IMG/VR virus record: IMGVR_UViG_3300050821_006746
Location: 45,142 to 109,141 of that record
DNA length: 64,000 bases
Origin: a virus
Strand: one strand, 5' to 3'
Shown: positions 10,033 to 63,200 of the stretch, in pieces
How the letters are laid out: every line of letters begins with the position of its first letter
Position numbering within the stretch: the first letter of the stretch is position 1
Made by a program: the position numbers and the translations under genes
Notes under the pieces: generated by a model
Databases searched by the model: none
Seen by the model: only the letters and a program-made list of their open reading frames with translations
Told to the model about the DNA's origin: nothing

Positions 10033-10659
10033 ATGTACGAGAAATCTTACCAAGCCTGGAAAGAGTTTAAGGAAAAGCTCTATGGAAAATCTAAGGAGCA
10101 ATTCGAGGATGCAACGCCAGAAGAAAAGCGGGCGTTGCTAGACAAGATGAATGCTTCTGACGATGAACAGATACAGCAGAAAGAGATAGAGCTAAATGAG
10201 CTATTTAGCAAAATGCAAGATCTTACTCAGGAAATAGCTCGTTTAACGGAATATTCAACAGGACATCAAGTTAGGATCATTCAACACGCCACAAGTGCTC
10301 TCAATAATTTTGTTCGCAATGGCATCCCCGATATGTTCCATTTTCCACGAGAAGACATGGACAAAATTATTCGCGCCATAGAGCAGGATCGTCGTACTCA
10401 GGCGCAAAGAGAAACGCTTGAGGGAATGCCGTATGATGCCTATCTGAAAACAGAGGCATGGCAAATAAGGCGTTCACAGGCTCTCAAAGACGCCAAGAAT
10501 AGGTGTCAGTTATGTTACAGTACAAAACTTCTCAATGTCCACCACAAGACCTATGAGCGGCGCGGACACGAACTGCCAGAGGATTTGATTGTACTCTGCA
10601 ACGATTGTCACGCAAAACATCACGACAAAATTGGCAAAAAGAATTCATGGAATTTTTAG
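10033..10659 (+). CDS. HNH endonuclease with N-terminal coiled coil
   Basis: YLKTEAW...RCQLC...LNVHHKTY...LIVLCNDCHAKHH. Confidence 0.85.
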   Translation: MYEKSYQAWKEFKEKLYGKSKEQFEDATPEEKRALLDKMNASDDEQIQQKEIELNELFSKMQDLTQEIARLTEYSTGHQVRIIQHATSALNNFVRNGIPDMFHFPREDMDKIIRAIEQDRRTQAQRETLEGMPYDAYLKTEAWQIRRSQALKDAKNRCQLCYSTKLLNVHHKTYERRGHELPEDLIVLCNDCHAKHHDKIGKKNSWNF

Positions 10660-20725: not shown

Positions 20726-21361
20726 ATGAAGGAGAATGAGAAACGATGTTCTGTATGTAAAAAAGATTTACCTGCCACTCCAGAATTTTTTTATCGTAAG
20801 CGATCCCGTAAAGATGGTTTTAGTTCTAAGTGTAAGGGATGTGAAAACGAGAAAATCAAAGAACGCTTGTCATTGCCAGATGTTAGGGAGCGCAAATTGG
20901 CTTATGACAAAGCGTATGCTAGACGTTTAGAGGTGCGCGAGCATCGTAAGAAGTATTGCGATGTTTATTTTAGTGATCCAGAGGTCCAAAAACATGCTAC
21001 CGTTCGGCGCAAAGGTTATCGTCAACTTCCCAAAGTTCGGGGCAACAGGCGTGTTGCGGATCACACTCGTAGAATGCGAAAGAAAGCAATTTTAGGTGTA
21101 TTTACTTCTCGACAGATCCAAGAACAGTTAAAACGGCAACGCTACCGCTGTTACTATGCGGCGTGTGGTTATGCCAAATTTGAAAAATGTGACGGGAAAT
21201 ACATCTATCATATCGATCATACTTTTCCCGTTAGCCGCATTGCTGGTATGGATATCCCAGCAAATGATATCGGCTATTTGGTATTAGCGTGTCCTTCTTG
21301 CAATCACAAGAAAAGCAACAAATTCCCATGGGAATGGCCTGAAGGTGGAAGATTGCTATAG
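20726..21361 (+). CDS. HNH homing endonuclease
   Basis: CSVC...CKGC Zn finger; HIDHTFP, LVLACPSCNHKK; WPEGGRLL end. Confidence 0.88.
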   Translation: MKENEKRCSVCKKDLPATPEFFYRKRSRKDGFSSKCKGCENEKIKERLSLPDVRERKLAYDKAYARRLEVREHRKKYCDVYFSDPEVQKHATVRRKGYRQLPKVRGNRRVADHTRRMRKKAILGVFTSRQIQEQLKRQRYRCYYAACGYAKFEKCDGKYIYHIDHTFPVSRIAGMDIPANDIGYLVLACPSCNHKKSNKFPWEWPEGGRLL

Positions 21362-44969: not shown

Positions 44970-45167
44970 GCGAACGGCGCAAGATCAAAATTGTCACTGA
45001 TGCTGTGGGGATACCTCATGTGTATGTGATTGGGACAGACATAGAACTCGACGGCGTGCTCTCCTGCAATGTGGTTGTCAAGCCAACGGATGTCCCTGTT
45101 GTTCAGATAGAGATCATGGAGCCGGAAGTCGAAATAAAACCAGTGTCTAGAAAGTAGGGACAACAGG

Positions 45168-48038: not shown

Positions 48039-48236
48039 ATGGAGAATTCAGTAAAAATACATTGCGAAACAACAGGGAAGCTCCTTGCGCGCCGTGATGA
48101 GAATGGCGTTTATTTATGGTGCAAAGAATGTAAGGTTGAGCATTTTATTTCGTGGGTTCCCAAAGATAACAAGAGTGAGGAAAATGCCGATAAAGTAGTT
48201 TCTGGAGAGGTTTTATGCTATAATCTGAGTATATAA
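48039..48236 (+). CDS. Com-like zinc-finger regulator
   Basis: IHCETTGKLLAR...LWCKECKVEH resembles Mu Com (C..C.KLL...C..C); second Cys replaced. Confidence 0.6.
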   Translation: MENSVKIHCETTGKLLARRDENGVYLWCKECKVEHFISWVPKDNKSEENADKVVSGEVLCYNLSI

Positions 48237-48335
48237 ATTGTGTGCCTCTGCAAGTGCGCTAACACTCCAGAGGCCGACCCTGAGTGTAAGTTCAAGGCAA
48301 GGTTATTATACCTTGTTAGGAAAGGGGTTTCTACC

Positions 48336-49061
48336 ATGTCTGGGCCAAAAGGCAACAAGAATGCTTTGGGATATCGACACACTGAGGAGGCAAAGAAACA
48401 TCTAGCGGATATCGCAAGAGGTAAGGAGGGATCAGAGAAACAGCGGCAAACTGTAATTGCTCTAAACAAATCAAGATCGGGCCAACCTGGACATCTCCAC
48501 ACAGAGGAGTCACGTCGAAAAATAGCAGAAGCCCATCGAGCACGCTGGAATGATCCCGAATGGAGAGCTAAAAGAGCCAAACAACTAAGGGAGGCTTTTG
48601 AGCAACCTGAAGCGATAGAGAAGATGAGAGAAGGCGTCACTGCCCATTGGTCAACCATTAGTTACGAAGAGAGACTAGAGCGCAATGCTGCAGGGCGAAA
48701 GGCTTCTCTGGAAGCAAATCCAACGAGCATTGAAATAAAGGTAAGTCAATACTTAGAAAATCTTGGCATTCAATTTATTGAGCAAAAGCAGGAAGGCCCA
48801 TACTTTCTAGACTTTTATCTTCCTGTAAAGAGGGTCATTGTAGAGGCGATGGGATGCTATTTTCATTCTTGTGCTGTTTGTGGGAAGCAAAATGCTTACA
48901 AGCCCGATGCTCCTGCTTATGACGCAAGGCGTAAGAATTATCTAGAAAAGAGGGGGTATCACGTCATTTGGATATGGGAACATGATATTAACAGGGATGT
49001 TGAGTTTGTACTTCGCCCTCTCTTGGAAAAATGTGGGGCGATAGAATACCCTACGGGGTAA
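48336..49061 (+). CDS. NUMOD3-repeat + DUF559/Vsr-like endonuclease
   Basis: HTEEAKKHL, HTEESRRKIAEA; PTSIE...LDF...IVEAMGCYFH...D..R...GY.V..IWEHD. Confidence 0.85.
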   Translation: MSGPKGNKNALGYRHTEEAKKHLADIARGKEGSEKQRQTVIALNKSRSGQPGHLHTEESRRKIAEAHRARWNDPEWRAKRAKQLREAFEQPEAIEKMREGVTAHWSTISYEERLERNAAGRKASLEANPTSIEIKVSQYLENLGIQFIEQKQEGPYFLDFYLPVKRVIVEAMGCYFHSCAVCGKQNAYKPDAPAYDARRKNYLEKRGYHVIWIWEHDINRDVEFVLRPLLEKCGAIEYPTG

Positions 49062-49102
49062 CGCAAAATTAGAGTTTTGTCAGAACAATAGAAAACGCAA
49101 AA

Positions 49103-49216
49103 GAGCCTTGAGCCACGGAACTGAGCATATCAGTATCGTGGCTTTTTTGATAAGTAGCCTTGAGCCTTGAGCCTTTTGACTACCAGTATCTTTTGGTAAG
49201 AAAGGCAGAAAAGGCA
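49103..49216 (+). promoter_or_regulatory. GAGCCTT repeats overlapping a terminator and an RBS-sequestering hairpin
   Basis: GAGCC at 49103, 49110, 49162, 49169 (TAGCC 49155); AGCCACG/CGTGGCT+T run; GCCTTTT/AAAAGGC. Confidence 0.6.
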
Positions 49217-49600
49217 TTGACAGCTTTAGCAGGAATCGGCGCGTCGGTCCAAGAATCTAGCACGGCCTTTACTGATTCAAGTAAATGGACTCTATCCCTC
49301 AAAAACGCCACCAAAGATGTCACCCCATTCGGGGCATCTGGCAGTTGGGCTATAAACATCCCCACGATCAACTCATGGACCGCAAAGGTATCTGTGTTCA
49401 TTGATCCTAGCGACACAGCACAATCAAACCTCAACGCACTGCTTGGGACAGTCGTATCACTCACGCTCAATGTGAGTGGTACGCCTCATGGCTGGACAGG
49501 TAGCGCAATCCTCGCAGGCATCGATCCTAGTGTGGACGCCCAGAGTGCGGAAACATGCGATTACTCCTTTACTGGAAGCGGATCGATCGCTTATTCCTGA
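49217..49600 (+). CDS. Tail tube-like protein 1
   Basis: WTLS...KDVTPFG...I.TINSWT; FTGSG; TTG start. Confidence 0.8.
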   Translation: MTALAGIGASVQESSTAFTDSSKWTLSLKNATKDVTPFGASGSWAINIPTINSWTAKVSVFIDPSDTAQSNLNALLGTVVSLTLNVSGTPHGWTGSAILAGIDPSVDAQSAETCDYSFTGSGSIAYS

Positions 49601-49632
49601 GCTTAAAAACAAACGGAGAGGAGGTAACCGCC

Positions 49633-50331
49633 ATTAGCGCATATGCAGGCATAAATGGGGATGTTTGGCTTTCCACGTCACCCCCAACGGCACTTGGCTC
49701 ACCCGAATCAGTCGCTGACTCAGGTGATCATATTCATTACTTCACAGCAACACATCCGGCGTGGGATTGGACAAAGACGTTGACTGTCCAGTGCTCACCA
49801 AATGGCTCGTCAGGCTGGGCAACCGTGACTGACTACATCTTTTTCTGGCCAGCCGGTGAAGTTGTGTTTAACACGGCGCGCGTACCTGGCACGAATAACT
49901 TCGTGCGCCTATCTGCTGGCAGTTACTTCACACTCTCTGCTCTGGGGGGCGCGCACATGTGGAAAGCGACTGGAAAGGCTGCCACCAAAGATGTGACGCC
50001 GTTCCAGGCCAGCGGTCATTATCAGCAAAACATAGCGACCATCAAATCGTGGACGTTCTCTGTGGACTGCTTCTCTCAGGATGCCAGAATCATGAACGAA
50101 ATGGTCACGGGAATGAGCGGCATCAACACCTCTGGGGGAGTGATCGTTTGCCAGTTGTGGTGGGACGAGACGAATGGCAGGCGCTATCAGTTTTTCGCGC
50201 TCCCAACACAACTGGACACAACTGTTGTGTCCAGCGACGTGGACAAGCAGACGGTGCAAATGACAGTCACCGGGCCACTCTATCAGATCACATCGAACAC
50301 ATTCACGACAGCAACTGTCACACGGATGTAG
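49633..50331 (+). CDS. Tail tube-like protein 2 with inserted domain
   Basis: KDVTPFQ...IATIKSWT paralogous to previous gene; likely ATT start after GGAGG. Confidence 0.75.
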   Translation: MSAYAGINGDVWLSTSPPTALGSPESVADSGDHIHYFTATHPAWDWTKTLTVQCSPNGSSGWATVTDYIFFWPAGEVVFNTARVPGTNNFVRLSAGSYFTLSALGGAHMWKATGKAATKDVTPFQASGHYQQNIATIKSWTFSVDCFSQDARIMNEMVTGMSGINTSGGVIVCQLWWDETNGRRYQFFALPTQLDTTVVSSDVDKQTVQMTVTGPLYQITSNTFTTATVTRM

Positions 50332-50342
50332 AAAGCACATAC

Positions 50343-50819
50343 ATGGCAAAGATAGTAGAACTGGACACAACACAGGAAAAAGCGTCGCCAAACGGCCATG
50401 ACGATACATGGCAGAGTTTTGATAGCGACATTGCACTGCTGCAACACATTCTCTCGAAGAAGCCTGCTGAGAAGCTAGTAGACGTACCAGAGTGGAACGT
50501 GCGTGTGCTTTGTCGTGCGCTCACCGCTGAGCACCGCATTGATGTGGAGACAAGGGCATACAACGCGGAAACAAAGAGAACCAATTACAGCGTTGTCTCG
50601 CACCTGATCTTGATGTATGGCTGCTATAACCCAAGCACCGGCAATCCCGTTTTCTATGGTCTAGACGATAGCGAGGCTGCGCGAAAGCAAAAAGAAGCCA
50701 CCATGAAGACGGTACTCATGCGAGAACAAGACGGCGGCGCTATTGAGCGCCTGTCGTTTGCCATCTTGCGTCTCTCTCGCATGCTGTTCAACGATGCTGA
50801 AAACGCGAAAAAAAACTAG
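50343..50819 (+). CDS. Tail assembly chaperone (G-type)
   Basis: VDVPEW..V..RALT; ends AKKN at A8 run. Confidence 0.85.
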   Translation: MAKIVELDTTQEKASPNGHDDTWQSFDSDIALLQHILSKKPAEKLVDVPEWNVRVLCRALTAEHRIDVETRAYNAETKRTNYSVVSHLILMYGCYNPSTGNPVFYGLDDSEAARKQKEATMKTVLMREQDGGAIERLSFAILRLSRMLFNDAENAKKN

Positions 50820-51166
50820 AAATTCGGTCTTTCTATGACGCTTATAGGCTCACTGAGCGGCTTGGCTATCGGCACATTGAGGATCTCCTGCAAGAGATGA
50901 CGAGCGCGGAGCTGACCGGATGGCTTGCCTACTTGCAGGTGGATGACGAGGTACAGGTACAGCGTCTGGCTTATGCCATTGTCAAAGCGTTCAATGGCGA
51001 TCAAAAAGGGCCGACGAAGAAGCCAGCGAAGCGCATAGAAGAGGATGAGGAAGTCATAGACACGACCGATCCTAAATTCGCTGAGCAATTTCAAGGCTTT
51101 ACGTATGCGAAGCCACAGCCACGCGTGCCAACTAGGCAGAGCAGCACGGAAATACTTTTCGGGTGA
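50807..51166 (+). CDS. Tail assembly chaperone frameshift extension (GT), -1 frame
   Basis: Slippery GAAAAAAAAC; -1 frame open LEIRSF...MTSAELTGWLAY to 51166. Confidence 0.8.
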   Translation, partial: EKKLEIRSFYDAYRLTERLGYRHIEDLLQEMTSAELTGWLAYLQVDDEVQVQRLAYAIVKAFNGDQKGPTKKPAKRIEEDEEVIDTTDPKFAEQFQGFTYAKPQPRVPTRQSSTEILFG

Positions 51167-51325
51167 GAAAGAAATACGGTATAAATGACGATATTGGCAG
51201 TTGATACAAAGTGGCATAAGTTGGCTTGTAGAGCCAATCTATGGTATAATATGGGTACAAAAAAGATGTTCGCTCTGGCGGTGCTGGAACACCCCAGAGC
51301 TGATGACAAGAAAGGAACTCTCGTC

Positions 51326-52051
51326 ATGTCCTCAAGTATACCACGCCCTAAAAAGCCTGCCCTGGAACGTTTCCTCTCGTTTGTTGCCGTGCAAGAAGAC
51401 GGTTGTTGGCTGTGGACGGGATGCATAACTAAAGGTGGATATGGAAGTTTTAGAAATGAACACGGGAAAACCGAAAATAGCCATAAATGGGCTTACAAGG
51501 TCTTTATTGGACCTGTCCCTGAGGGGTTAGAACTCGACCACCTTTGCCGAAATCGTGCCTGCGTAAATCCAAATCATCTAGAACCTGTTACTCGTTCCCA
51601 GAATACTGTTCGTGGACTAAAGGGAATACTTAAACCAGGCAAAATATCTAAATATGTAGGCGTGTATTGGACCGAACGCCTACATAAGTGGCGATCCACC
51701 ACGAAAATCAATGGCAAAAGTTACTATCTGGGGCATTTTTCCAGCGAAGAAGAGGCGCATCAAGCATATGTACAGGCTTGTAAATCTTATGAAGCAGATG
51801 GAACAATCCCGGTAAAACTACTTACAGCAAAGAAAACATCTCGCTATCCAGGGGTATCATGGCACAAACGTAAAGAGAAATGGGGGGCATCAGTACGCAT
51901 AAATGGCAAACAATGTTACATTGGCTACTTTGTGTCTGAGGAAGAGGCATATCAGGCATATGTAACCGCCAAAACGAACTTTGAACAATATGGCATTCTC
52001 CCTCAACCAAGATCGTATGCAAGGAAGTTGCAAGAGAGAGGGGGTGATTGA
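51326..52051 (+). CDS. HNH homing endonuclease with two AP2 domains
   Basis: CWLWTG...GYG, LDHLCRNRACVNPNHLEPVT; two SKY.GV.W...W...YLG.F..EEEA repeats. Confidence 0.92.
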   Translation: MSSSIPRPKKPALERFLSFVAVQEDGCWLWTGCITKGGYGSFRNEHGKTENSHKWAYKVFIGPVPEGLELDHLCRNRACVNPNHLEPVTRSQNTVRGLKGILKPGKISKYVGVYWTERLHKWRSTTKINGKSYYLGHFSSEEEAHQAYVQACKSYEADGTIPVKLLTAKKTSRYPGVSWHKRKEKWGASVRINGKQCYIGYFVSEEEAYQAYVTAKTNFEQYGILPQPRSYARKLQERGGD

Positions 52052-55000
52052 TATCAGCGACATTGGCGAAATAAAAGCTCGTGTGACCATCTCTTATGAC
52101 GGCGCGGGGATCGACGAAGCAAAGAAAGACCTCTCAAGCCTCTCGGATATCGTCGGCGGTGGACTGACAGAGAATGTAGGCACCGCGAATGAAGCACTGG
52201 CGTCGCTTGACGAGCAAATGGGCAAGAATGCGGGAAGTGCCAGCGATCTCGTCTCCTCTGTTGGCGCGATCGAAAAACCTATGCAGGCCAGCGCTGATGC
52301 CGTCTCCTCTGTCAATGAAGTCCTGGGTGAGCAGCAAGCGGCGGTAGAAAATGCTGGTACGGCACTGGAGGGCATGCAAAAGCCACTCGAAGATACGACG
52401 ACGCTCATGCAAAATGCCGCACCTCCTATGAAAACCGTTGTCGAGAATGCGACGGCAATGCAGGCACCTCTGGACGCCGCCAACACCGGCTTCGTTCAGA
52501 TGTCCGAAAGCCTCAACAACGCTGTGCCACTTATGCCTCAAATGGCGTCGGGCATAAGTGGCGTTGCTGAGGCACTTGATCCTAAAGCGCTCGGACTCAG
52601 CGCGGCCACCGATAATCTTGCGGTTTTTCAGGATGCGCTGAGCAATCCTCAGCCGTACCAACTAATCGGTGCGCATCTCGACAGCACCGGACAGAGTTGG
52701 GGTGATTTCTTCTCCTCTGTTGGAACCACCAGTGCCACATTTTCACAACAGATGATTGACAATGCTAAGGCGTCCCAGGCGTCGTTCGGCACTATATCAT
52801 CTGGTGCTCAAAGCGCAGAACAGTCATTTTATGTGGTAGGGAATCAAACCAATGCACTAAGCCAATCCATTGCCGGTATCAACACCTCTGGCGGCGTAGG
52901 AACTGCGCTTTACGGACCAGCAGATTCATGGAGCAAACTAAATGCTGGCCTGGCGAGCACGGAAGAGGGGATCAATAAACTCGGTGGCGTGGGGGCAAAT
53001 CTCTATGGCCCAGAAGTGCCCATCAATCTGGGTAGCATGTTTGATGATATATCGGGGAGCATGGGTAAAGGTTTTGGGGGCTTCGTACAGAGCTTCGATA
53101 GCTTTATGAGGCCATTGATGTACCTCCAAATGGCCGGTATGATGGTTGGCGCGGTTTCAACTGGAATTTATAATATGGCGGCTCTGGCAGAGGGGCCAGC
53201 CGCGCACTCGATCGGGTCCTTCACCGGGGCTATTGATGTGATGGGGCAGCAAGCGCAACAGACGGGGCAACAATTCTCAGAGGGTCTAGGTCAAGGCATC
53301 CTGCCGATGATCAATGCGATGAATAATGTCAGCGGCAACAGCAAAAATACTGACTTTTGGGGTGCCGTGGGTACGGGCATTGGTCAAGTGGGTAGCTTGC
53401 TCGGAACGGTTGGACAAGTTGCTGCTGGTGCGATTATGGATCTGCCGTGGCTTGCCTTTACGCCGAGCACGAATATCTCGTCTATGCCAGGCAATAACTT
53501 GATGCAGCAAGGATGGGAGGGACTGCAAAACCTCTGGGCGCAAATCACAGGAGGAAAAGAACCCTTTCCAACCCCTGGTACACCTGGATCACAGGTATCG
53601 TCAGTCCAAGCGTCAATCAATGCAGGCATCCCCGCTATGTATGCGCAAGCGAATGATCCAGGGTACCTGGCCGCTCAGGCGTACGCAAGCAGTCAGATGG
53701 GCTACGCGACACTAGGACAAACTCGCTACGATGTGTCACATCTCAGCGGTTTTGATACTGCCCCCTGGTATCAAGGCGTACCTACAGCAGCAGCGGGTCC
53801 ACTTAACTATGCACCGCAAGCGTATCAACAATCCTTAATGCCACAGATCCTCGCAACTGGTGGTGCCGGGTCCGGTCTTGACGCTGTGGACCTGAACCGG
53901 CTGTACTTTGAAGCGGCGGACGCGCGGGCTGCACTGGTTGCGCCAGAAACCCCTGGTTGTTTCCCTGCTGGCACTCCTGTCTTGCTCGCTGATGGCACTG
54001 AGAAGGCCATTGAAACTCTGCACAGTGGAGATCGAGCGCTTGCCCACGATGGCACCAAACAGGTCACTACAACGATTTTAGCACTTATCAAGCCGCCTCC
54101 AAAGCTCGTTTACAAACTGGCTTTTGACGATGGCAATACATTAACGCTGACTGATTCTCATCCTGTATCGACGGATCGGGGTTGGAAATCACTCTCACCT
54201 GATGCAACGCGAAAAGAGAATCCTGATTTTGCCGTAACAGTATTGCAGATCGGGGATCGCATCCACACGGTTGGCGGCACCTGCACACTGCTGGCAATAC
54301 AGCCATGCGAGATCGTCCAAGTCTACAACATCACGGTTGGCGAGCAGCACACGTTCTATGCTGGTGGTATCCTCGTCCACAACAAAATATCAATGACTGG
54401 TACGCAAGTTATGCAAAACGTGGCGAATACCACCGTGCCTGACATGGACATGAAGAATACCAATCTCATCCAAAGCCTGGCAAGCAACTTTACCGGAGCC
54501 GATATCTCACACACGTTCACAGCGTCGGTCAATTGGGCAGCAACAGGCGACTTAGCGCATACCTTTCAGGGTTCTCCAGGCTGGGCAACAGTCGGTGAGT
54601 TGGCACATATATTTCTGGGTGCTCCTGATTGGGCAACAGTCGGTGAGTTAGCCCACACATTTCAGGGCATTGCTAATTGGGTGGCAACGGGTGGCTTGCA
54701 ACACTCCTTTGAGGGGATTCTCAACTGGGTAGTTCCACCAGAGATTCAACACACGTTCGAGGGTATTGCTAATTGGGTGACATCGGGCGAAATGGCCCAC
54801 ACATTTCAGGGATGGGCGTCGTGGGTTGGACAGGAACTCACCCACACATTCACTGCCGTCGCGAATTGGGTGGTATCTGGGCTCTCGCAAACAGCTTCTG
54901 TGCCTGGATTCGCTGCTGGTGTTCAAAATTTCGGCGGCGGTCTCGCTGTCGTGGGTGAGTACGGGCCTGAGCTGGTGCATCTACCTCAAGGCACCAGCGT

Positions 55001-55178
55001 GTACCCGCAATCAGCAACAGGCGGCTTTTCTGGCCTCAACATGGGCAGTATCGGTGATAGTGGGCAACTCAATCTTACCATCAATCACACAACGATGCTC
55101 AATGGCAAGGTCATGGCACAAGAGACGATCCCTTTGATTGCTCCAATCCTTAGAAGCCAGATGGCGGTGCGCCGATGA
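52044..55178 (+). CDS. Tape measure protein containing a Hint domain and 16-aa repeats
   Basis: Follows G/GT chaperones; A/G/S/Q-rich; C-terminal FAAG...VVGEYGPELVHLP; start GTG 52044 or ATC 52053. Confidence 0.85.
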   Translation: MIDISDIGEIKARVTISYDGAGIDEAKKDLSSLSDIVGGGLTENVGTANEALASLDEQMGKNAGSASDLVSSVGAIEKPMQASADAVSSVNEVLGEQQAAVENAGTALEGMQKPLEDTTTLMQNAAPPMKTVVENATAMQAPLDAANTGFVQMSESLNNAVPLMPQMASGISGVAEALDPKALGLSAATDNLAVFQDALSNPQPYQLIGAHLDSTGQSWGDFFSSVGTTSATFSQQMIDNAKASQASFGTISSGAQSAEQSFYVVGNQTNALSQSIAGINTSGGVGTALYGPADSWSKLNAGLASTEEGINKLGGVGANLYGPEVPINLGSMFDDISGSMGKGFGGFVQSFDSFMRPLMYLQMAGMMVGAVSTGIYNMAALAEGPAAHSIGSFTGAIDVMGQQAQQTGQQFSEGLGQGILPMINAMNNVSGNSKNTDFWGAVGTGIGQVGSLLGTVGQVAAGAIMDLPWLAFTPSTNISSMPGNNLMQQGWEGLQNLWAQITGGKEPFPTPGTPGSQVSSVQASINAGIPAMYAQANDPGYLAAQAYASSQMGYATLGQTRYDVSHLSGFDTAPWYQGVPTAAAGPLNYAPQAYQQSLMPQILATGGAGSGLDAVDLNRLYFEAADARAALVAPETPGCFPAGTPVLLADGTEKAIETLHSGDRALAHDGTKQVTTTILALIKPPPKLVYKLAFDDGNTLTLTDSHPVSTDRGWKSLSPDATRKENPDFAVTVLQIGDRIHTVGGTCTLLAIQPCEIVQVYNITVGEQHTFYAGGILVHNKISMTGTQVMQNVANTTVPDMDMKNTNLIQSLASNFTGADISHTFTASVNWAATGDLAHTFQGSPGWATVGELAHIFLGAPDWATVGELAHTFQGIANWVATGGLQHSFEGILNWVVPPEIQHTFEGIANWVTSGEMAHTFQGWASWVGQELTHTFTAVANWVVSGLSQTASVPGFAAGVQNFGGGLAVVGEYGPELVHLPQGTSVYPQSATGGFSGLNMGSIGDSGQLNLTINHTTMLNGKVMAQETIPLIAPILRSQMAVRR
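53958..54383 (+). other. Hint (intein-like) domain, 142 aa, no homing endonuclease
   Basis: CFPAGTPV (block A), LTDSHP (block B), VYNITV..HTFYAGGILVHN (F/G); next residue is K. Confidence 0.92.
54504..54880 (+). repeat. Eight ~48-bp coding repeats (HTFxGxxxW)
   Basis: LAHTFQGSPGWATVGE-type 16-aa units. Confidence 0.85.
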
Positions 55179-58100
55179 GCATCACATGCACCATCAGCGG
55201 CGTCTCTGTCACGGTTGGCAACGCTTCATTTAGCTTGCAAGACCCGCTTGAGAACAGATCCATCCTCACGTTTACCGTGTTGGACTCAGCAGGCACCGCA
55301 ATATACACGCGTGGACAGCCGGTCACGTTCTCAGATCCCGGCATCCTGAGTTACGTTGGCTATGTCCAATCCGACGCGCCAACCAAAGACGGTTTGGTAC
55401 TGCCGTATGTCGAACACATCGTCACCTGCATGGATGGTCAATATCTGCTCGATAAGCGCTCAAACTCAGTAAATTACCTCAACTGGATAGCGGGCAACAT
55501 CGTCGTTGACTTTGTGCGCAGAGACCTCGCGAATGAGGGCATAACGATTAGCGCTGCAATGCGTCACGACACAACAGTTAGTGACTTCAATCAGGGCAAT
55601 CTCGACGGGACGGTGGGAGCAATCAATACTACTCCTGCCACTACGCTGAATGGGGTTATAAGCACTACAGATGACGGAGATCTAGAGATAGCGGGAGCTG
55701 GTAGTAATCTCACCATTTCCGAATCAACGACAGCACAATTTGCCGCTGGTACGCTCACTAACGTTGCTGCATCGAACAATGCGCTCTCACCATCAACGGT
55801 AAGCGCCTTGTCATTCACAGCGACTTTGCCGGTGGCACTCGCCACAAACAACCTCTATATGGAAATCTGGTCGGGATCTCAGGTTGTGGGCACCAATGAC
55901 ACGCTCAATTATGACATCTGGATCAGTTCAACGTCACCAGCGTTCAATGCAGGTGTCGATCTCAATTTCAGTGATAGCACCAGCCTTAACACTTACGTGG
56001 GTCCAACCGATGACAACACCCTGGCAGCCTCGCCTACAACCGATCTTTCAGGGTACGCCAAAGACACATGGTACACGCGCTCTATCGCACTCGGCACTGT
56101 CATCAATGGCAAAACGGTCAATAGCGTGTGTGTAGCCGTGGCTGGCAACAGCGCCGGGACGTACAACATTTTCTTTAAGAATATCTATCTCGGCTCGCAC
56201 TCAGGTAGTCCATTCTTTTCGACGAGTGCCACTGCTACCCAGGTCAACCCGTCCACAGTGTTCTCTAACGCGACCTACCCCGGAACGTTGGCATCAACAA
56301 GCGTGGTACAGGCGATCAGCTCGAATACTGTGAACCGGGTTTCGTCTGCCTATTCTATCGACGCCGTGAAGCTAACAAACTCTACCTTTATCACATGGGA
56401 TTCAACCTCCCCATCCAACTCACTTGTGCAAATGTCCGTGTCCTACGATGGCAACGCATTCTTGCTCTGTACGAATGGCGCGCCGCTACCGGGTCTACCT
56501 GCCGGGTCAAACGTGGCTGGAACATCGCTCTACCTGCAAGAGATCTTCGTCACGGGTATCACACCGACCGCGTTTCCGTCCCTCTCAGCGGTGACGGTGA
56601 CGCTTACAACGGCACCCAATGCCACGAAGAGTGATGTCACAACCAGTTACGGCACCTCTGCACAGTGGAACGCAGGGACGCTCACTGGTGTGGCACCCAA
56701 CGCAAACGGGGATCTGACTTTACTCAATTCAGTACGCACATGGAACGATAACCTGATCACTAATCAGACATTTTTTCCATCGTCTGGCGGTTCGCCCACT
56801 CAGTCGGCCAGCGGTGGTACATATAACCAGATTATCCCAGGCAACGGGAGCTTCCCAGGCTTCTGGGCGCTCTCACGGATGGACTTTATTGCGGCAAGGG
56901 CGGATTTCTCCCTTGATGTTGATACAACCTTTGCCTTTTCCGGCTCAGGAACGCCCGTAGGGAAGATAGGCATTGTCTACCGTGGCACAGGGTGGTCTTC
57001 GGCTGACCAGAACTACGCCTATGTCGTGCTTGTCACCTGGACAAGCAGCCCAACCATCGAGATTGGTTACGGATCGAATAGTAGCGGAGGTTCGACTGGC
57101 ACCTACACGCTGGTCAAGAACGCCTCAGTCGCGCTTGGTACCGGCTCGAATCATCTCAAGATTGTCGTAAGTGGCAAAACGCATCAAGTCTTCTGGGCGG
57201 GATCGTCAAGCCCGATTCTCACCGCAACCGACTCAACCTATATGAGTGCGGGTCAGTTCGGCATTATCACCTACGGCGACGATGTAAGCGCGACTGAAAC
57301 ATTGACTGGCAAGTATGACAATCTGGTGGTTTCCTCGAATATCGGCACGTGGCAATCGGGTTCTGTCTCCCTGGCTGCGCTCACAACCATCGAGGGAAGT
57401 AACATCTCCTGGCTGGAAACGCTGGCTACAGGTGTCCCATCGGCCACGGCCATCGTCTCAACGAGTATCGACGGTGGCACGACTTGGAAGCCATGCACGA
57501 ACAATGCACCCATTCCCCAACTGCTAGAGGGAACAAACGTGTCGTCCCTCTCACTGATTGCGCGCATCATCTTGTTCAGTGCGACTTATGCCGCCAACCC
57601 CGTCATCGGTGGCTTGAACTGGCGCGTACTGGGCGCATTCCCAACGGTGACAGGCACGCGGGACACGGCACCGTTGGGCAATGATATGCAGATCACGCGT
57701 ACGGTCGGTAGCGGCTGGGGCAATGCGTTTGATAGCCAAACCTGGACACAGGCAGGCACAGGCGCTACAGCAGTGGCGACAGGCGAAGCGACGATCACCA
57801 ACACGACCGGGACCGTCTATATGCGGCTCGGTACGCGCACCGGGACCAACATCCAGGGCACGCACCGCTTCTCTCTCTCGTCCAGCGCGGAGACGGCGGG
57901 AATCTTTCTGCGTTACGTGGACACCAACAACTACTACGCGCTCGCTGCCACGACGAGCACAACCTCCATTCTTAAGAGACTGGCAGGCGTAACCACGACA
58001 TTGGCAAGTGTGAGTATGGCGCTGAGCATCAATACTCCGTACCAGATGCACTTTTTGACAGCAAACTCTGGGCCAGTCTCGCTCTTTGGCAATATGTGGG

Positions 58101-58180
58101 CGGATGGAAGCCTAGAACCAACGGTAAATTCACTAGGCCAGTGGAATGATAGCCTCTGGGTTATCACAGCACTTGATTAG
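55175..58180 (+). CDS. Tail tip/hub protein N-terminal part with beta-sandwich domains
   Basis: Coupled to tape measure; S/T/G-rich; lectin-like repeats. Confidence 0.75.
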   Translation: MSITCTISGVSVTVGNASFSLQDPLENRSILTFTVLDSAGTAIYTRGQPVTFSDPGILSYVGYVQSDAPTKDGLVLPYVEHIVTCMDGQYLLDKRSNSVNYLNWIAGNIVVDFVRRDLANEGITISAAMRHDTTVSDFNQGNLDGTVGAINTTPATTLNGVISTTDDGDLEIAGAGSNLTISESTTAQFAAGTLTNVAASNNALSPSTVSALSFTATLPVALATNNLYMEIWSGSQVVGTNDTLNYDIWISSTSPAFNAGVDLNFSDSTSLNTYVGPTDDNTLAASPTTDLSGYAKDTWYTRSIALGTVINGKTVNSVCVAVAGNSAGTYNIFFKNIYLGSHSGSPFFSTSATATQVNPSTVFSNATYPGTLASTSVVQAISSNTVNRVSSAYSIDAVKLTNSTFITWDSTSPSNSLVQMSVSYDGNAFLLCTNGAPLPGLPAGSNVAGTSLYLQEIFVTGITPTAFPSLSAVTVTLTTAPNATKSDVTTSYGTSAQWNAGTLTGVAPNANGDLTLLNSVRTWNDNLITNQTFFPSSGGSPTQSASGGTYNQIIPGNGSFPGFWALSRMDFIAARADFSLDVDTTFAFSGSGTPVGKIGIVYRGTGWSSADQNYAYVVLVTWTSSPTIEIGYGSNSSGGSTGTYTLVKNASVALGTGSNHLKIVVSGKTHQVFWAGSSSPILTATDSTYMSAGQFGIITYGDDVSATETLTGKYDNLVVSSNIGTWQSGSVSLAALTTIEGSNISWLETLATGVPSATAIVSTSIDGGTTWKPCTNNAPIPQLLEGTNVSSLSLIARIILFSATYAANPVIGGLNWRVLGAFPTVTGTRDTAPLGNDMQITRTVGSGWGNAFDSQTWTQAGTGATAVATGEATITNTTGTVYMRLGTRTGTNIQGTHRFSLSSSAETAGIFLRYVDTNNYYALAATTSTTSILKRLAGVTTTLASVSMALSINTPYQMHFLTANSGPVSLFGNMWADGSLEPTVNSLGQWNDSLWVITALD

Positions 58181-58200
58181 ATCGAAAGGACATATCACTT

Positions 58201-58722
58201 ATGGGAGCAGCGACAGTTTTGGCCGAAGCGGGGACAGGAGCATCAGTCTCCTGGGCCACCGCAGAGGGCGGCGTTACCTGGAATCTGGCGGATAGTATCA
58301 CCGCGACGACGCCAGTTGCGATCCCGACAGCGACCGGGACCAATTTTTCATGGATCAAAAATCTCGTCTTGTACGTGACGGTTGCCGGTACCACGGCCTT
58401 TACCAACCGCACCGTCAAGGAATCGAGCAGTCTATCAACTGGCCTCGCGTTCTTCTTCAAAGATGTGGCCGTTGCTTCCTATGCTCAATCCGCGTCAGGC
58501 AACAGGCCGGCATCGTCAGGATCAAATGGGGCAACGCCAGCAGGTTATACAGCTATGACAACTACGGCACAGCAATGGGACAACACAAGCCACTCTTCGG
58601 GCAGCACAGGGCCAAACGGGGATATATGCGTAATCGTGGCAGGAGTAGACAATACTTACGTCGGTGGTGCAGGAAACGCAATTTCAATGAATAATGTGAT
58701 CCTATCCTACGATGAGGCATAG
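58201..58722 (+). CDS. Putative tail structural protein
   Basis: T/G/A/S-rich, ends SYDEA. Confidence 0.6.
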   Translation: MGAATVLAEAGTGASVSWATAEGGVTWNLADSITATTPVAIPTATGTNFSWIKNLVLYVTVAGTTAFTNRTVKESSSLSTGLAFFFKDVAVASYAQSASGNRPASSGSNGATPAGYTAMTTTAQQWDNTSHSSGSTGPNGDICVIVAGVDNTYVGGAGNAISMNNVILSYDEA

Positions 58723-59055
58723 ATGAAAAAAGATGTATATGCGTGGGCTGTTCTGTATCACGACGGCTCGTCCATTCAGGAATACGATCGCCCCGATGGA
58801 CACGGATTTGCCGTCGTTGACAGCGCACAAGTCAGGCGCCTCACGCTGACATCCCCTGACTGCTCACATTCCGTGGTGGTGCCCACCGGGGCTATGCCCG
58901 TCTTTTTTCGACGCAGGAGCATCGCATTGCAGCCAGGCGGTGATCCGATTCCGACTGTGCATTGCATCGGGTGGAAGCGCGAGGACAAGGCTGTTTATCT
59001 CTTCATTTCTGAGGATGGATCAACGCTGGCTACGGAAAATCTACAGGCGGTGTAA
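58723..59055 (+). CDS. Hypothetical tail-region protein
   Basis: W..LY.DG...YD; PVFFRRR; CIGW. Confidence 0.6.
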   Translation: MKKDVYAWAVLYHDGSSIQEYDRPDGHGFAVVDSAQVRRLTLTSPDCSHSVVVPTGAMPVFFRRRSIALQPGGDPIPTVHCIGWKREDKAVYLFISEDGSTLATENLQAV

Positions 59056-59085
59056 ATTGTCACACCGCCTGTTAAAAGTTATCGA

Positions 59086-60081
59086 TCAGAATAATCGCCC
59101 GCCTTCGGGCCATTCATGGGGTAATTTGACATGTTTTCGGTAATTACATGTCGGGCATGCAAGCACCAGATTATCAGGCCAATTAGTACCGCCTCTAGAA
59201 AGTGGTATTACATGGTCAATATGATATTGTTCCAAATGTTTTTGACAGTAGTAACACTTGGATTTTTGGGCTTGCAACTTATGTTGAATATCCTGTGCGG
59301 TGTATCTTCCTGGAGCAGCAAGATAGCGAGCGCGCCTAATATGACTCGCTATTCTGACTCGTATTTTTACATCCTCTCGCTGGAAATATCGCGATCTGTA
59401 GGCTTGGTATTGCTCAGTTTCCCTCCATGCGCGATGTTTTTCTCTATAATATTCTGCTCGTTCTCTTCTGTATTGGCGAGCGTATGCTCTACTATGTTGC
59501 TTATAATGCTCAGTTGCACGCTGCTTCTTGCGCGAAAGTACCGCACGCTCAGGATTTTCTTTTCGCCAACGAGCATTCTTTGCTCGCTCTTTCGCGAGTG
59601 CATTTGGGTTGTTCCGACGAAGTTTACGATTGTATTTATTCATGCAGTCTTTGCACTTTATATACAATCCAGTTGGAGAATAACTATTCTTGCCAAAGTA
59701 TTCCAATGTTGCAGGCTTGTTTATACCACACTCAACACAAGTGAGAGTAGGAGGAGGCTCAACTTTTTGGGTTTTACGCATAAGGTCATAGTTTTTGATG
59801 CACTCTTTGCACCAGGATGTAACTCCATAAAGCCCTCGCTTGCTTTTACTGAAGTTCTCAATAGGGAAGATAAGTTTGCATTGAGTGCATCGCTTATGCC
59901 CAAGTGGAAAATTTTCAGGCGTTTTTCTAATGCGTCGATCCCTATGATACTTGTTGATACAATCTTTCCTGCAAAGATTAAAACCATCTTTTCTATGCCC
60001 ATCACGAGGGAAAAACTCAGAGGTGAGTGGCTTAAACTGCTCACACTTAGTGCAATACTTTTGGGGTATACTGGTATCCAT
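59086..60081 (-). CDS. HNH homing endonuclease with three Zn-finger repeats
   Basis: Three CxxC...CK.C units; HIDHVIPLSRGGTN...NLVLACPTCN; WPEGGRLF end. Confidence 0.92.
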   Translation of the reverse strand: MDTSIPQKYCTKCEQFKPLTSEFFPRDGHRKDGFNLCRKDCINKYHRDRRIRKTPENFPLGHKRCTQCKLIFPIENFSKSKRGLYGVTSWCKECIKNYDLMRKTQKVEPPPTLTCVECGINKPATLEYFGKNSYSPTGLYIKCKDCMNKYNRKLRRNNPNALAKERAKNARWRKENPERAVLSRKKQRATEHYKQHSRAYARQYRRERAEYYREKHRAWRETEQYQAYRSRYFQREDVKIRVRIASHIRRARYLAAPGRYTAQDIQHKLQAQKSKCYYCQKHLEQYHIDHVIPLSRGGTNWPDNLVLACPTCNYRKHVKLPHEWPEGGRLF

Positions 60082-60200
60082 AGTAAGGCTCCAATCCTTG
60101 CTATCAGCCAGGGGGTGTTACCAGCACCGCTCTGGTACCACATTATTACCCCTCAATTATACCATGAAGCAGCCTCTAGAGCAAGTTTAGGGGGTGTTTT

Positions 60201-63200
60201 GTGACAATTTTCTATGGCTCGTCGATTGCGAATGGCACCATTACCACGGCCAATACTGCCTCTACCACTACGGGTGGCACCGAGACCAGTAAGACAAGCA
60301 CGTGGTCCGGTGGCAATCACTTTGCCGAAGTATGGTCACAGGGCGGATCGTCTACACCTGCAACGTCTATCCCGGCAACACCTGACGGGCATGGGTGGGT
60401 CACGGCTGCTCCTGGCGCGGGATCATTTGCGAACGCCAACTGGTCCGCATCTATCGCCCTCGCTCTCTCCAGCAGCTCCACCGTTTCGTGGACGGTGCGC
60501 TTTTTCAAATATAGTTCTGGCACCTATACCTCTATAGGAACGATTGCCACCTCTGCTGCCAGCCTGGGCACCTCGCGTACCGTTATTTCTTTCGCAGCAA
60601 CCTCAATGGCACTGACTACCTTTGGGGCAGCCGATCTGCTGTATGTGGATCTATGGATGCAAGACACGACCGGGGCGGGCGGAGATAACGCGATTGTGTA
60701 CGAGTCGAACAGCGCAACTCAGGGGGTAGCCAATGATGTGCAAATCACCACGAGCACATTTACCCCATCTGGCACTACCAATAGCCGCACTGTTCCCGCT
60801 ACTGCTGCGTTGCTGCAAACCAGTTCACGCACCGTGCCCGCTACCGCTGCCCTCCAAGCAACAAACTCGCGGACTGTACCTGCAACGGTCGCATTGCTCC
60901 AAACCAGTAGCAGAACCGTGCCCGCTACGGCTGCCCTGGCCAACACATTCAGTAGGACCGTTCCCGCTACTATCGCGCTCGACCAGCCTAGCAGCCGAAC
61001 GGTTCCCGCTACTATCGCGCTTTCAGGAACGTTTAGCCGAACGGTTCCCGCTGTTGTTGCTCTCACTCACACGAGCACGCGAACGGTCCCAGCCAGCATC
61101 GCTCTCTCAACGACTGGACATCGGACTATTCCAGCCAGTATGGCGCTGACCATCGAGATTGCCAGTGGCGGATTCGGCGTGTTCGCAAGCGGACCAAACA
61201 CGGTTTCTTTCGACCATCTGAGATTTACCGAGTATCCTGATCCTGCTCTATGCCTCGCGCCTGTGTTGCCGCGTTTGGGTAGCACCACCGTTGCATGGGA
61301 TGAGGCTATCCCGACGAACGGAGCATGCACAGTCAAAACAAGCCTGGATGGGGTCAACTGGACGGCGATTCCTACACCAACGGCCATGAAATTTGATGGC
61401 ACGAGCGGCTATATCAGCCTGCCAACAACGGGACTACCAACTGGGGCTGCAGCGTGGAGTATGGAGTGCTGGTGTCAGATGCCAAATCCGCTACCAACGA
61501 CAGGGACCGGATTCAACACGACTATGAGCATGGGTACGCCTGGCGTCTCAAACGAGTTTGCATACATCTACTACCGCACAACCGCGACTGCATTTCGTAT
61601 TGACGTGGTAAGCACAAGCATTCAAAGCTCGGTAGTTGTTCCAGGTGGCATCTATCACTTGGTTGCTACCTATGATGGCACAACGCTCAAATTTTTTATG
61701 AACGACATATTGCAGGGAAGCGCAACCGTCACGCTCAACATCACTGCCAGCATTGCGCAAATTGGCAATGACAATTCAGGAGACTTCTGGGCAGGAGTTG
61801 AGCAGGCCAGCGCGTTCTACTCTACCGCGCTCTCTGCCGCCCAAGTCAGCAATCACTTCGCAGCCGGGCTAGTTCCCAATACCTACAACGCGGTAGTGCT
61901 TGCTGACTCGCCAATTCGCTTCTACCTGCTCAATGATGCCGGTACGACAGTCGTCGATAGCGGATCACAGGCGCAAAATGGCACAACACATGGCACAATC
62001 TTGGCGAACGTTCCAGGGATCATTGCCAGCACCAACAGTAACACCAACACGATACCGGGCCTGACTGGGCAGCCTGATCCAACCATCGATATTTTTACAG
62101 TAAACTCGTCAGCAAATTATACGAATACAGCCAAATCAGGCGGTAGCGTGTCCACGGTGGCGTATGACACAGCAAACAGCCGCATAACGCTTTCAGGCGG
62201 CTCCGGTGGTCTCTATCTCTATACTGCCATCAACGACAATGATGTGGATTTGATTGCTGATATGGACGAGTCGGACGCAGGCGGCCTCGTGTGGCGATTT
62301 GTTGATACCAACAACTACTACGAGTTGGGCGCATACGATGATAGCTCGTCCAGCGGCTTTACAAATCAGCTGCGCTTGTACAAGGTTGTGGCTGGTACTC
62401 GCTCACTGATCGGAAGTGCTTCTGTCATCTCATGGCCACGTTCAACGCCTGGCAGTAGCCCATACAAGAGAATCCGAGTAACGATGCTCGGAACCACGAT
62501 CACCGTGTATTTTGATGGCACAGTCATGCAAACCGCGACGGATAGCACGTTCGCGAGTGGTCAGATGGGACTACGCAACGACGGGGGCACATCACGCTAC
62601 TATCAGCTTCGATTGCAGGCGGTTGGGGATTATGTGAGCGGCACACCTGCTGGGGATATCGTGACGAGTGATTTTGTCTACACACAAGTAACACTCTCGA
62701 CGACCGATCCCACCGTCAACCCGCGAATCCAAGACTTGACCACAACGGCAAATAGCCCATCCGTTGGCAACGGCCTGGTCATCCCGCAGTTGCATGATCC
62801 AACCAAACCGTTCGCGGCATTCTACAACGCTGAGATGGACTCACTCGCACAATCGAGTGGAGATTTCTATTGGGCTGTTAACAGCAATGCACTTTCCTTT
62901 GTGGGTCGTCAGGCAGTACCCGCGCCCTGGTGTCTTCACAGTGCAGATTTGTTGTTTACCCCAACCGTGAAGCCGACATTCAGCGCGGATCTCTACCGCA
63001 ACCGCATGAAGATCACCAACTGCCTGGGCACAGTCACCATCACTGGCGAGCAGAAGATAGCCGATGGGACAGCTTCTTCGTGGCAGATGGCCTATCCGCT
63101 CTACAGTGAGCCGAGCATAAACGTGCAGGGTGTTTTCAAGACGGTCGGCGTGCAGGGCGGTACTGTTATAGCTGATTTCTACTGGCAAGCGGCATCAAAC

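Follow-up and report, generated by a model that had tools for sequence, protein, structure and literature searches.

In a 64,000-nucleotide stretch of viral DNA (positions 45,142 to 109,141 of IMG/VR record IMGVR_UViG_3300050821_006746; hereafter, the window), three endonuclease genes, HEG1 to HEG3, are each preceded by the same conserved two-hairpin module. This stretch forms the final 64 kb of a complete genome of 109,141 bp that has terminal repeats. Given the covariation, conserved letters, and folding energies of its copies here and elsewhere, we consider it probable that this module is a small cis-antisense RNA gene, located on the strand opposite to the nuclease gene and repressing the nuclease.

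On the sense strand, each of the three genes follows a TGnTATAAT box, a bulged hairpin (hairpin 1, or P1), and a second helix (P2); the counterparts of the two helices on the opposite strand are called P1' and P2'. The box and the bulged hairpin had been reported in the original prediction, and both their coordinates and stems were confirmed, as were the identities of the genes by Pfam. The features of the three cassettes are as follows.

48336..49061, plus strand: HEG1, a NUMOD3 plus DUF559/Vsr-like endonuclease (Pfam); its own Shine-Dalgarno (SD) sequence and ATG lie outside the antisense RNA.
51326..52051, plus strand: HEG2, an HNH_3 plus AP2 endonuclease (Pfam).
59086..60081, minus strand: HEG3, a Zn-finger HNH endonuclease (Pfam HNH).
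48230..48298, minus strand: predicted antisense small RNA (sRNA) of cassette 1, with P2' at 48298-48277, a bulged P1' at 48274-48244, and an A/U-rich tail at 48243-48230.
51256..51327, minus strand: predicted antisense sRNA of cassette 2, with P2' at 51327-51303 (anti-SD in the loop, ATG covered), P1' at 51300-51272, and a tail with U6 at 51271-51256.
60080..60152, plus strand: predicted antisense sRNA of cassette 3, with P2' at 60080-60104 (anti-SD in the loop), P1' at 60107-60136, and a tail at 60137-60152.
48305..48310, minus strand: candidate antisense -10 box of cassette 1, TATAAT, with TAGAAA 17 nt upstream at 48333-48328; promoter prediction calls both.
51335..51343, minus strand: candidate antisense extended -10 box of cassette 2, TGGTATACT (TGgTATACT), within HEG2 codons 4-6.
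60065..60072, plus strand: candidate antisense -10 box of cassette 3, GGTATACT, within HEG3 codons 4-6.
48216..48224, plus strand: sense extended -10 promoter of cassette 1, TGCTATAAT, overlapping the 3' end of the Zn-finger open reading frame (ORF) 48039-48236.
51221..51250, plus strand: sense promoter of cassette 2, TTGGCT-18-TGgTATAAT, with its TGnTATAAT part at 51242-51250.
60156..60164, minus strand: sense extended -10 promoter of cassette 3, TGGTATAAT (TGnTATAAT).

A covarying two-hairpin module

The core GTGC-N3-4-AACAC begins 28 to 30 nt past each of the three TATAAT boxes, and the combination of this core with TGnTATAAT occurs at these three sites only in the whole 109-kb genome. P1 spans 48244-48274, 51272-51300, and 60107-60136; its 5' arm is bulged, and the outer stems differ between the copies. 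The second hairpin had been thought to hold the ribosome binding site (RBS) at all three genes. This is the case for copies 2 and 3, where the loop of P2 contains the SD and the helix borders on the ATG, but not for copy 1, where the CAAGGU..ACCUUG pairing is not the second helix of the family. That helix lies at 48277-48298 and contains no RBS. The ATG of copy 1 (48336) stands 23 nt past the module end with an SD of its own, and the family start position reads CAAGG, lacking a start codon, with the reverse box intact. By this arrangement, copy 1 looks like a new ORF (NUMOD3-DUF559) fused just beyond the module head.

An exact scan of IMG/VR with the core common to copies 2 and 3 returned 103 loci, ~45 of which show the same architecture in high-GC phage contigs. 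A covariance model, R1, was built from 36 foreign copies and no window sequence; it matched window copies 2 and 3 at E-values of ~1e-9 (38.8 bits for copy 2 and 39.6 bits for copy 3). A second pattern, in which the loop and one stem pair were left free, was applied to IMG/VR and to bacterial genomes, yielding copy numbers that are lower bounds. The loop of these copies is hypervariable, and the free stem pair alternates between G:C and A:U. The resulting model, R2, made from 102 foreign copies and likewise no window sequence, matched the three window copies only, both in the window and in the whole genome, with 33.8 bits for copy 2, 28.2 bits for copy 3, and 26.5 bits for copy 1, where the match spans 48237-48313. 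The E-values at the three sites were 4e-8, 2e-6, and 6.5e-6.

The full collection comprises at least ~250 copies from IMG/VR contigs, bacterial prophages, and cultured Gordonia and Microcystis phages. This sample is biased: most copies come from the two exact patterns, which fix GTGC..AACAC, and only eight are free of both. The loop-closing C..A is retained in six of these eight.

Both helices covary. Among 96 distinct copies, 92% of the cells are paired and 14 of the 17 pairs show compensatory change, in line with the earlier remark that the outer stems differ while their pairing is kept. None of 500 shuffles matched this level, and structures shifted by 1 to 3 columns had only 39 to 52% of their cells paired. 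An extra covarying pair (G:C in 79 copies, A:U in 7) closes P2' at the antisense RNA's predicted 5' end.

Membership in a known Rfam family, which the original prediction had named as an outcome that would count against it, was not found: Rfam 15 at its gathering scores gave no match in the window, and E-value scans of nine module loci on both strands gave none above threshold at the module. The sole Rfam signal at the module was ctRNA_pGA1, seen on the antisense strand of one foreign copy with 26 bits, compared to a cut-off of 45, and an E-value of 0.04. Full-text literature searches found no description of the module or its motif; a catalogue of 8,495 IMG/VR candidate RNAs (PMC10690425) may contain it. 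If it is indeed an RNA gene, the module would be a compact RNA family absent from Rfam.

Conserved signals on the opposite strand

About 8 nt past the AUG, the family conserves the letters AGnnUAC, although the frame in which they are read varies: the window has AGU AUA CC, and most copies have nAG nnU ACC. The AGnnUA box is kept even in copy 1 despite the moved start codon; there, the antisense -10 box reads AUUAUA on the sense strand and aligns with AGnnUA of the family. On the opposite strand the box becomes TAnnnT, with frequencies in 189 distinct copies of 0.94 for T(-12), 0.95 for A(-11), and 0.98 for T(-7). G is present at -13/-14 in ~0.55 of these copies, and nothing is conserved at -35. 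This profile is that of a bacterial -10 box and resembles the actinobacterial type. The box lies 6 to 8 nt from the base of P2'; from this position, transcription would begin at the foot of P2', where the nuclease has its start codon, and the putative cis-antisense sRNA gene would have a promoter of its own.

On the sense RNA, the same letters have no evident role in folding. Mutual information identified no covarying partner for AGnnUAC, which led us to reject a pseudoknot or an alternative helix, and in partition-function folds the box was 58% unpaired or had no pairing partner other than downstream coding sequence.

The mismatches within the helices are also strand specific. P2 cells contain 140 A·C combinations compared to 25 G·U, and P1 cells contain 23 compared to 2. 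Since an A·C mismatch on the sense strand is a G·U pair on the opposite strand, these counts favor the antisense strand. At the positions flanking P1, 117 copies have A·C and 43 have G:C, and the letters closing the loop are C..A, that is, U·G on the opposite strand, in 192 of 194 copies, a count partly forced by the GTGC..AACAC search patterns. Folding energy is lower on the antisense strand for P1 in 193 of 193 copies, for P2 in 155 copies versus 36, and for the whole module in 181 versus 12. The A-rich run before P1 appears on the opposite strand as a U-rich tail that follows a GC-rich hairpin of 12 bp: a mean of 5.0 U is found in the 10 nt after P1', as opposed to 1.27 on the sense side of P1, and at least four U are present in 169 of 192 copies.

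Within the window, the fold of cassette 1 has an energy of -26.8 kcal/mol (z -4.25) on the antisense strand and -19.1 kcal/mol (z -1.88) on the sense strand. The corresponding values for cassette 2 are -31.5 kcal/mol (z -5.78) and -25.1 kcal/mol (z -3.80). For cassette 3, the antisense strand folds at -26.8 kcal/mol (z -3.47), whereas the sense strand has a z of 0.01 and does not form the motif. All three predicted antisense RNAs share the same clean two-hairpin fold, and none of 200 shuffles was as good.

Initially, the module had been read mainly as a sense leader recognized by a common factor or acting as an RNA cofactor. The invariant letters and wobble pairs fit the opposite strand only, and the hypervariable loop receives no support as a factor-binding site. 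The proposed sequestration of the RBS survives in altered form: the RBS would indeed be covered, mainly by the antisense RNA and not by the sense hairpin alone.

A cis-regulatory leader acting on the sense strand alone, with P2 hiding the SD and start, P1 binding a common factor or stabilizing the mRNA, and no antisense RNA, is in our judgment unlikely. It agrees with the SD-bearing P2 that abuts the AUG in copies 2 and 3 and in most foreign copies, with the strong sense promoters of the window copies, and with the sense-strand hairpin 1, which is better than shuffles in copies 1 and 2 (z -3.1 and -3.9) and no better in copy 3 (z 0.1). Hairpins that hide the RBS are, moreover, described for phage homing endonucleases (PMC2677866; reportedly also PMC2988022). 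Such a leader does not explain the near-invariant A..UA past the start codon, which persists across reading frames, nor does it explain why the 5' flank is rich in A, why the C..A and A·C mismatches are conserved, or why A·C so outnumbers G·U in P2. It also fits poorly with the unfolded sense strand of copy 3, the P2 of copy 1 that lacks an RBS, and the roughly one-half of all copies that have no recognizable sense -10 box.

The variable P1 loop had no apparent target in cis, its complement not being enriched at any position relative to shuffled loop assignments. Copies residing on the same contig differ in this loop in six of seven contig pairs, as do the three copies of the window; speculatively, these differences fit a specificity encoded in the loop.

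Several resemblances to known RNA elements were considered and rejected. An anticodon-stem mimic or thrS-like operator was dismissed because most loops are 6 nt long and have no fixed anticodon. The bulged C and 5-bp upper stem fit an aconitase site of the iron-responsive element type, but the loop is not CAGUGN. Copy 2 contains CUGAUGA of the hammerhead core but no stem II or GAAA. T-box UGGN, the RNase P minihelix, CsrA GGA sites, and boxB/put antitermination shared a few letters only and failed on variable loops or host range. A paper on translational bypassing (PMC10732093) proved irrelevant to the module.

Module and nuclease as one insertion cassette

We compared the window to five syntenic IMG/VR relatives, whose tail proteins are 45 to 70% identical to those encoded here. 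Gene order is kept in these relatives, and none of them has a homologue of HEG1 to HEG3. R2 found no match in them even at an E-value of 0.1, and ~0.9 to 1.1 kb at each of the three sites is present in the window only. Because the five relatives lack both the nucleases and the module, the promoter, module, and nuclease form one insertion cassette. Each cassette sits between conserved genes and is missing from syntenic relatives, the pattern of free-standing homing endonucleases, and the idea that a portable module travels with unrelated endonuclease families is thereby upheld. The insertions lie in the tail module and adjoin genes for tail completion, the tail tube, and the tape measure. A megablast search of the region against cultured phages gave no match.

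The genes behind the module were classified with Pfam. The 32 viral copies precede HNH_3 (9 copies), endonuclease VII (4), HNH (3), and GIY-YIG/T5orf172 (1) genes; the 89 genome copies precede HNH (15), endonuclease VII (6), HNH_3 (5), T5orf172/MUG113 (5), and LAGLIDADG (1) genes. PHROGs assigned HNH or endonuclease VII families to the bulk of the 89 genome copies. Non-nuclease genes behind the module include helix-turn-helix (HTH) or replication-initiator-like genes in 7 of the 89 and a few integrases, and some copies precede short ORFs only. Most copies precede nuclease genes inserted between conserved late genes, and the genes neighboring the foreign copies encode terminase, portal, head protease, capsid, tape measure, and lysin proteins.

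Among the matches listed, the carriers are mostly Actinomycetota prophages. Full-length copies were also found in contigs labeled Thauera/Oryzomicrobium, Pseudomonas, Gemmataceae/Planctomycetota, Chloroflexota, Myxococcaceae, and others, although some carrier contigs are bins of metagenome-assembled genomes, and not all of their host labels are secure. The cultured carriers, with scores of 77 to 84 bits, are Gordonia phages Malisha and Spooky and Microcystis phage MinS1. In Malisha, the module precedes gp15, an endonuclease VII flanked by the major tail protein on one side and the tail chaperone on the other; in Spooky (gp31) and MinS1, it precedes HNH genes. Taken over all of these carriers, the module is, by its recurrence at the head of such genes, real, portable, widespread, and strongly tied to nuclease genes. 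On portability and on the association with nucleases, the original prediction is supported, and the foreign-only R2 recovers exactly its three window sites.

Three groups of carriers deserve separate mention. The MinS1 copy (L226, 2495-2575) scores 83.8 bits, has a GC content of 63%, and is nearly identical to the actinobacterial consensus, which indicates that the cassette has recently moved between phages of very different kinds. In Spooky, the deposited coding sequence of gp31 (L228, 2485-3063) starts upstream of the module, within the region aligned as hairpin 1; judging from the alignment, this annotated start is probably wrong, and the family start codon is located ~70 nt downstream. In an actinobacterial subgroup (L007, L010, L066, L131, and others), the sense promoter and the spacer, TTGACCTGCGGAAACGGTAGAAT, are nearly identical, and therefore the conserved unit there extends further 5' than the RNA module.

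The surroundings of the window cassettes have some features of their own. The Zn-finger ORF 48039-48236 ends within the sense promoter of cassette 1 and has a homologue in one of the five relatives (L233); its C terminus may have been remodeled by the insertion of the cassette. At its 3' end, HEG2 shares ~70 nt (51981-52051) with the tape-measure gene when the latter is taken in its longest open frame (TTG at 51981). Many foreign cassettes overlap the start of the next gene by 4 to 17 nt, as Dassa et al. described. Past the antisense RNA predicted for cassette 3, a plus-strand hairpin with a U-rich tail (60173-60203) precedes a large tail gene whose start is at 60201. This gene lies in the direction of the cassette's reverse promoter, which might feed it; alternatively, transcription from that promoter might be attenuated at the hairpin. 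Two more HNH-domain ORFs occur in the early region, at ~10504-10629 and ~21188-21322, both on the plus strand and in open frames of 209 and 224 amino acids, respectively. The R2 scan of the genome found no module before either of them (~10.5 kb and ~21.2 kb), and hence not all HNH genes of the phage carry the cassette head.

Discussion

We propose the following course of events. Each nuclease gene would have been acquired as one insertion cassette with a conserved head of ~80 bp. The TAnnnT box in the first nuclease codons would initiate an RNA of ~70 nt at the nuclease start codon. The 5' part of this RNA is predicted to form hairpin P2', with an anti-SD sequence in its loop, followed by a short linker and the long, GC-rich, once-bulged P1' with its 4- to 5-nt loop of variable sequence; the U-rich tail at the 3' end would act as an intrinsic terminator. 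Being fully complementary to the 5' leader of the nuclease mRNA, the RNA would pair with that leader, probably loop to loop at first. Pairing would block the ribosome site, expose the duplex to RNase III, or both, so that translation or mRNA stability is lowered and nuclease levels are kept low once the cassette is established. The facing promoters, ~100 bp apart, may also interfere mutually, and the weaker sense helix P2 may add to the covering of the RBS.

Several observations weigh against this proposal. The predicted antisense RNA of copy 1 leaves the real SD and ATG uncovered; with the RBS outside the RNA, repression of that gene would be limited to mRNA decay or to interference between the facing promoters. 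The U-tails in the window are weak, that of copy 2 having a U6 that starts 7 nt past the stem, and no terminator was predicted at any of the three sites. Sense hairpins are present in copies 1 and 2 as well, next to strong sense promoters, and a role for the sense strand is possible. The C..A count owes part of its height to the search patterns, as stated above. Finally, DNA of the phage is present in two public soil read runs, with neither joints nor ends seen, and the sole match in an RNA library is one metatranscriptome contig (51427-51660), which lies inside HEG2 and outside the module and carries no strand information.

Even if an antisense transcript is real, its main job could be other than repression of the nuclease: it might act in trans as an sRNA, serve as an insulator or terminator, or be the product of an outward promoter that restores the expression of a neighboring phage gene cut off by the insertion. 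The reverse promoter of cassette 3 is codirectional with the late operon, has a weak terminator, and is followed by the large tail gene, and the HTH or replication-initiator-like genes, integrases, and short ORFs found behind some copies would also suit such a role. However, complementarity to the 5' untranslated region (UTR) of the nuclease mRNA is complete by construction, and in most copies the anti-SD is exposed in a loop and a putative terminator follows within ~70 nt; no conserved single-stranded seed was seen besides the linker. We consider these alternatives improbable, more so than a leader on the sense strand. The reading that survives least well is a DNA-level element without RNA function that serves cassette mobility, for example as a site of recombination, as a cruciform, or as an operator for a protein: the joining of the same head to unrelated nuclease ORFs does imply recombination at or near the head, and copy 1 does resemble a fusion just past the module, but covarying stems and a strand-specific wobble pattern are not expected from double-stranded DNA or a protein site, and promoter-like and terminator-like signals at the right spacing make this explanation very improbable.

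The antisense repressor that we favor has parallels in several characterized systems. In IS10/Tn10, RNA-OUT, a stable antisense RNA of ~69 nt whose reverse promoter is located just within the gene, prevents ribosomes from binding (PMC5006887). The likeness is that of a selfish element restraining its own DNA-cutting enzyme by an antisense RNA over the translation initiation region. The phage module differs in that it would act on homing endonucleases of several unrelated folds and in having two hairpins, a putative U-tail terminator of its own, and predicted coverage of the whole 5' UTR; we found no sequence or Rfam relation between the two. In symE-symR, EcoRI, and Eco29kI, a reverse promoter located inside the toxin or nuclease gene gives rise to a short antisense RNA, by which the leader's SD is covered and translation is repressed, and the facing promoters interfere (PMC3874152). 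Here the likeness is in gene layout only, that of the phage module being read off its letters; unlike the single chromosomal locus of symE-symR, the module is a portable head of many gene families across phyla.

Similar in build are the countertranscripts of plasmids (CopA of R1 and the ctRNA families), in which a small 5' hairpin is likewise followed by a linker, then by a GC-rich hairpin that is long and bulged and bears a short recognition loop, and finally by a U-tail. The specificity of plasmid countertranscripts is set by differences in their loops. They control replication and not a nuclease, and the match to ctRNA_pGA1 is below threshold, so the module does not belong to that family.

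The hairpins of free-standing phage homing endonucleases, such as Aeh1 mobE, T4 I-TevI, and the "fractured gene" loci, are similar in that conserved hairpins precede different endonuclease families. These hairpins were described as tied to T4-type late promoters, whereas the signals of the phage module favor an antisense RNA gene with a TAnnnT box of the sigma-70/sigma-A type. With regard to T4-type RBS sequestration, the SD lies within the sense P2 for window copies 2 and 3 but not for copy 1, and P2 has many A·C mismatches; the sense -10 box lies upstream of both hairpins, and none lies inside. PeSL cassettes of T4-type phages, reportedly described by Arbiol et al. in 2010, are said to be portable promoter and stem-loop units that accompany and bracket mobile genes and to have been read as recombination substrates. 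The phage module differs from them in occupying the 5' head only and in having convergent promoters. Dassa et al. (2009) observed that GIY-YIG and Vsr-like endonuclease ORFs of marine phage loci are preceded by conserved hairpins, which they read as hiding the RBS on the sense strand; the 3' end of the nuclease overlapped the next gene, and the hairpin was kept after loss of the nuclease (PMC2677866).

A further step, which we regard as possible but on balance doubtful, is that the variable recognition loop provides each cassette with a private on/off switch, comparable to multicopy inhibition or to type I toxin-antitoxin systems. The nuclease would then fire only upon entry into a naive cell or after loss of the cassette, and orphan heads left by decayed nucleases could silence incoming cassettes with the same loop, in many bacterial phyla.

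Our literature searches found no description of an antisense RNA gene heading homing endonucleases. The restraint of free-standing homing endonucleases is understood for a few T4-type genes only, where it operates via hairpins and late promoters. The cassettes described here span phages and prophages of Actinomycetota, Proteobacteria, Planctomycetota, and Chloroflexota, as well as a cyanophage. If the proposal is true, the module would serve as an annotation marker for such cassettes and for the true start codons of their genes, as in Spooky gp31, and would provide a setting in which specificity encoded in a loop can be tested between selfish elements that reside together. An antisense RNA gene heading hundreds of nuclease cassettes would then represent a general layer of control over these enzymes, as it does in transposons, plasmids, and toxin-antitoxin pairs.

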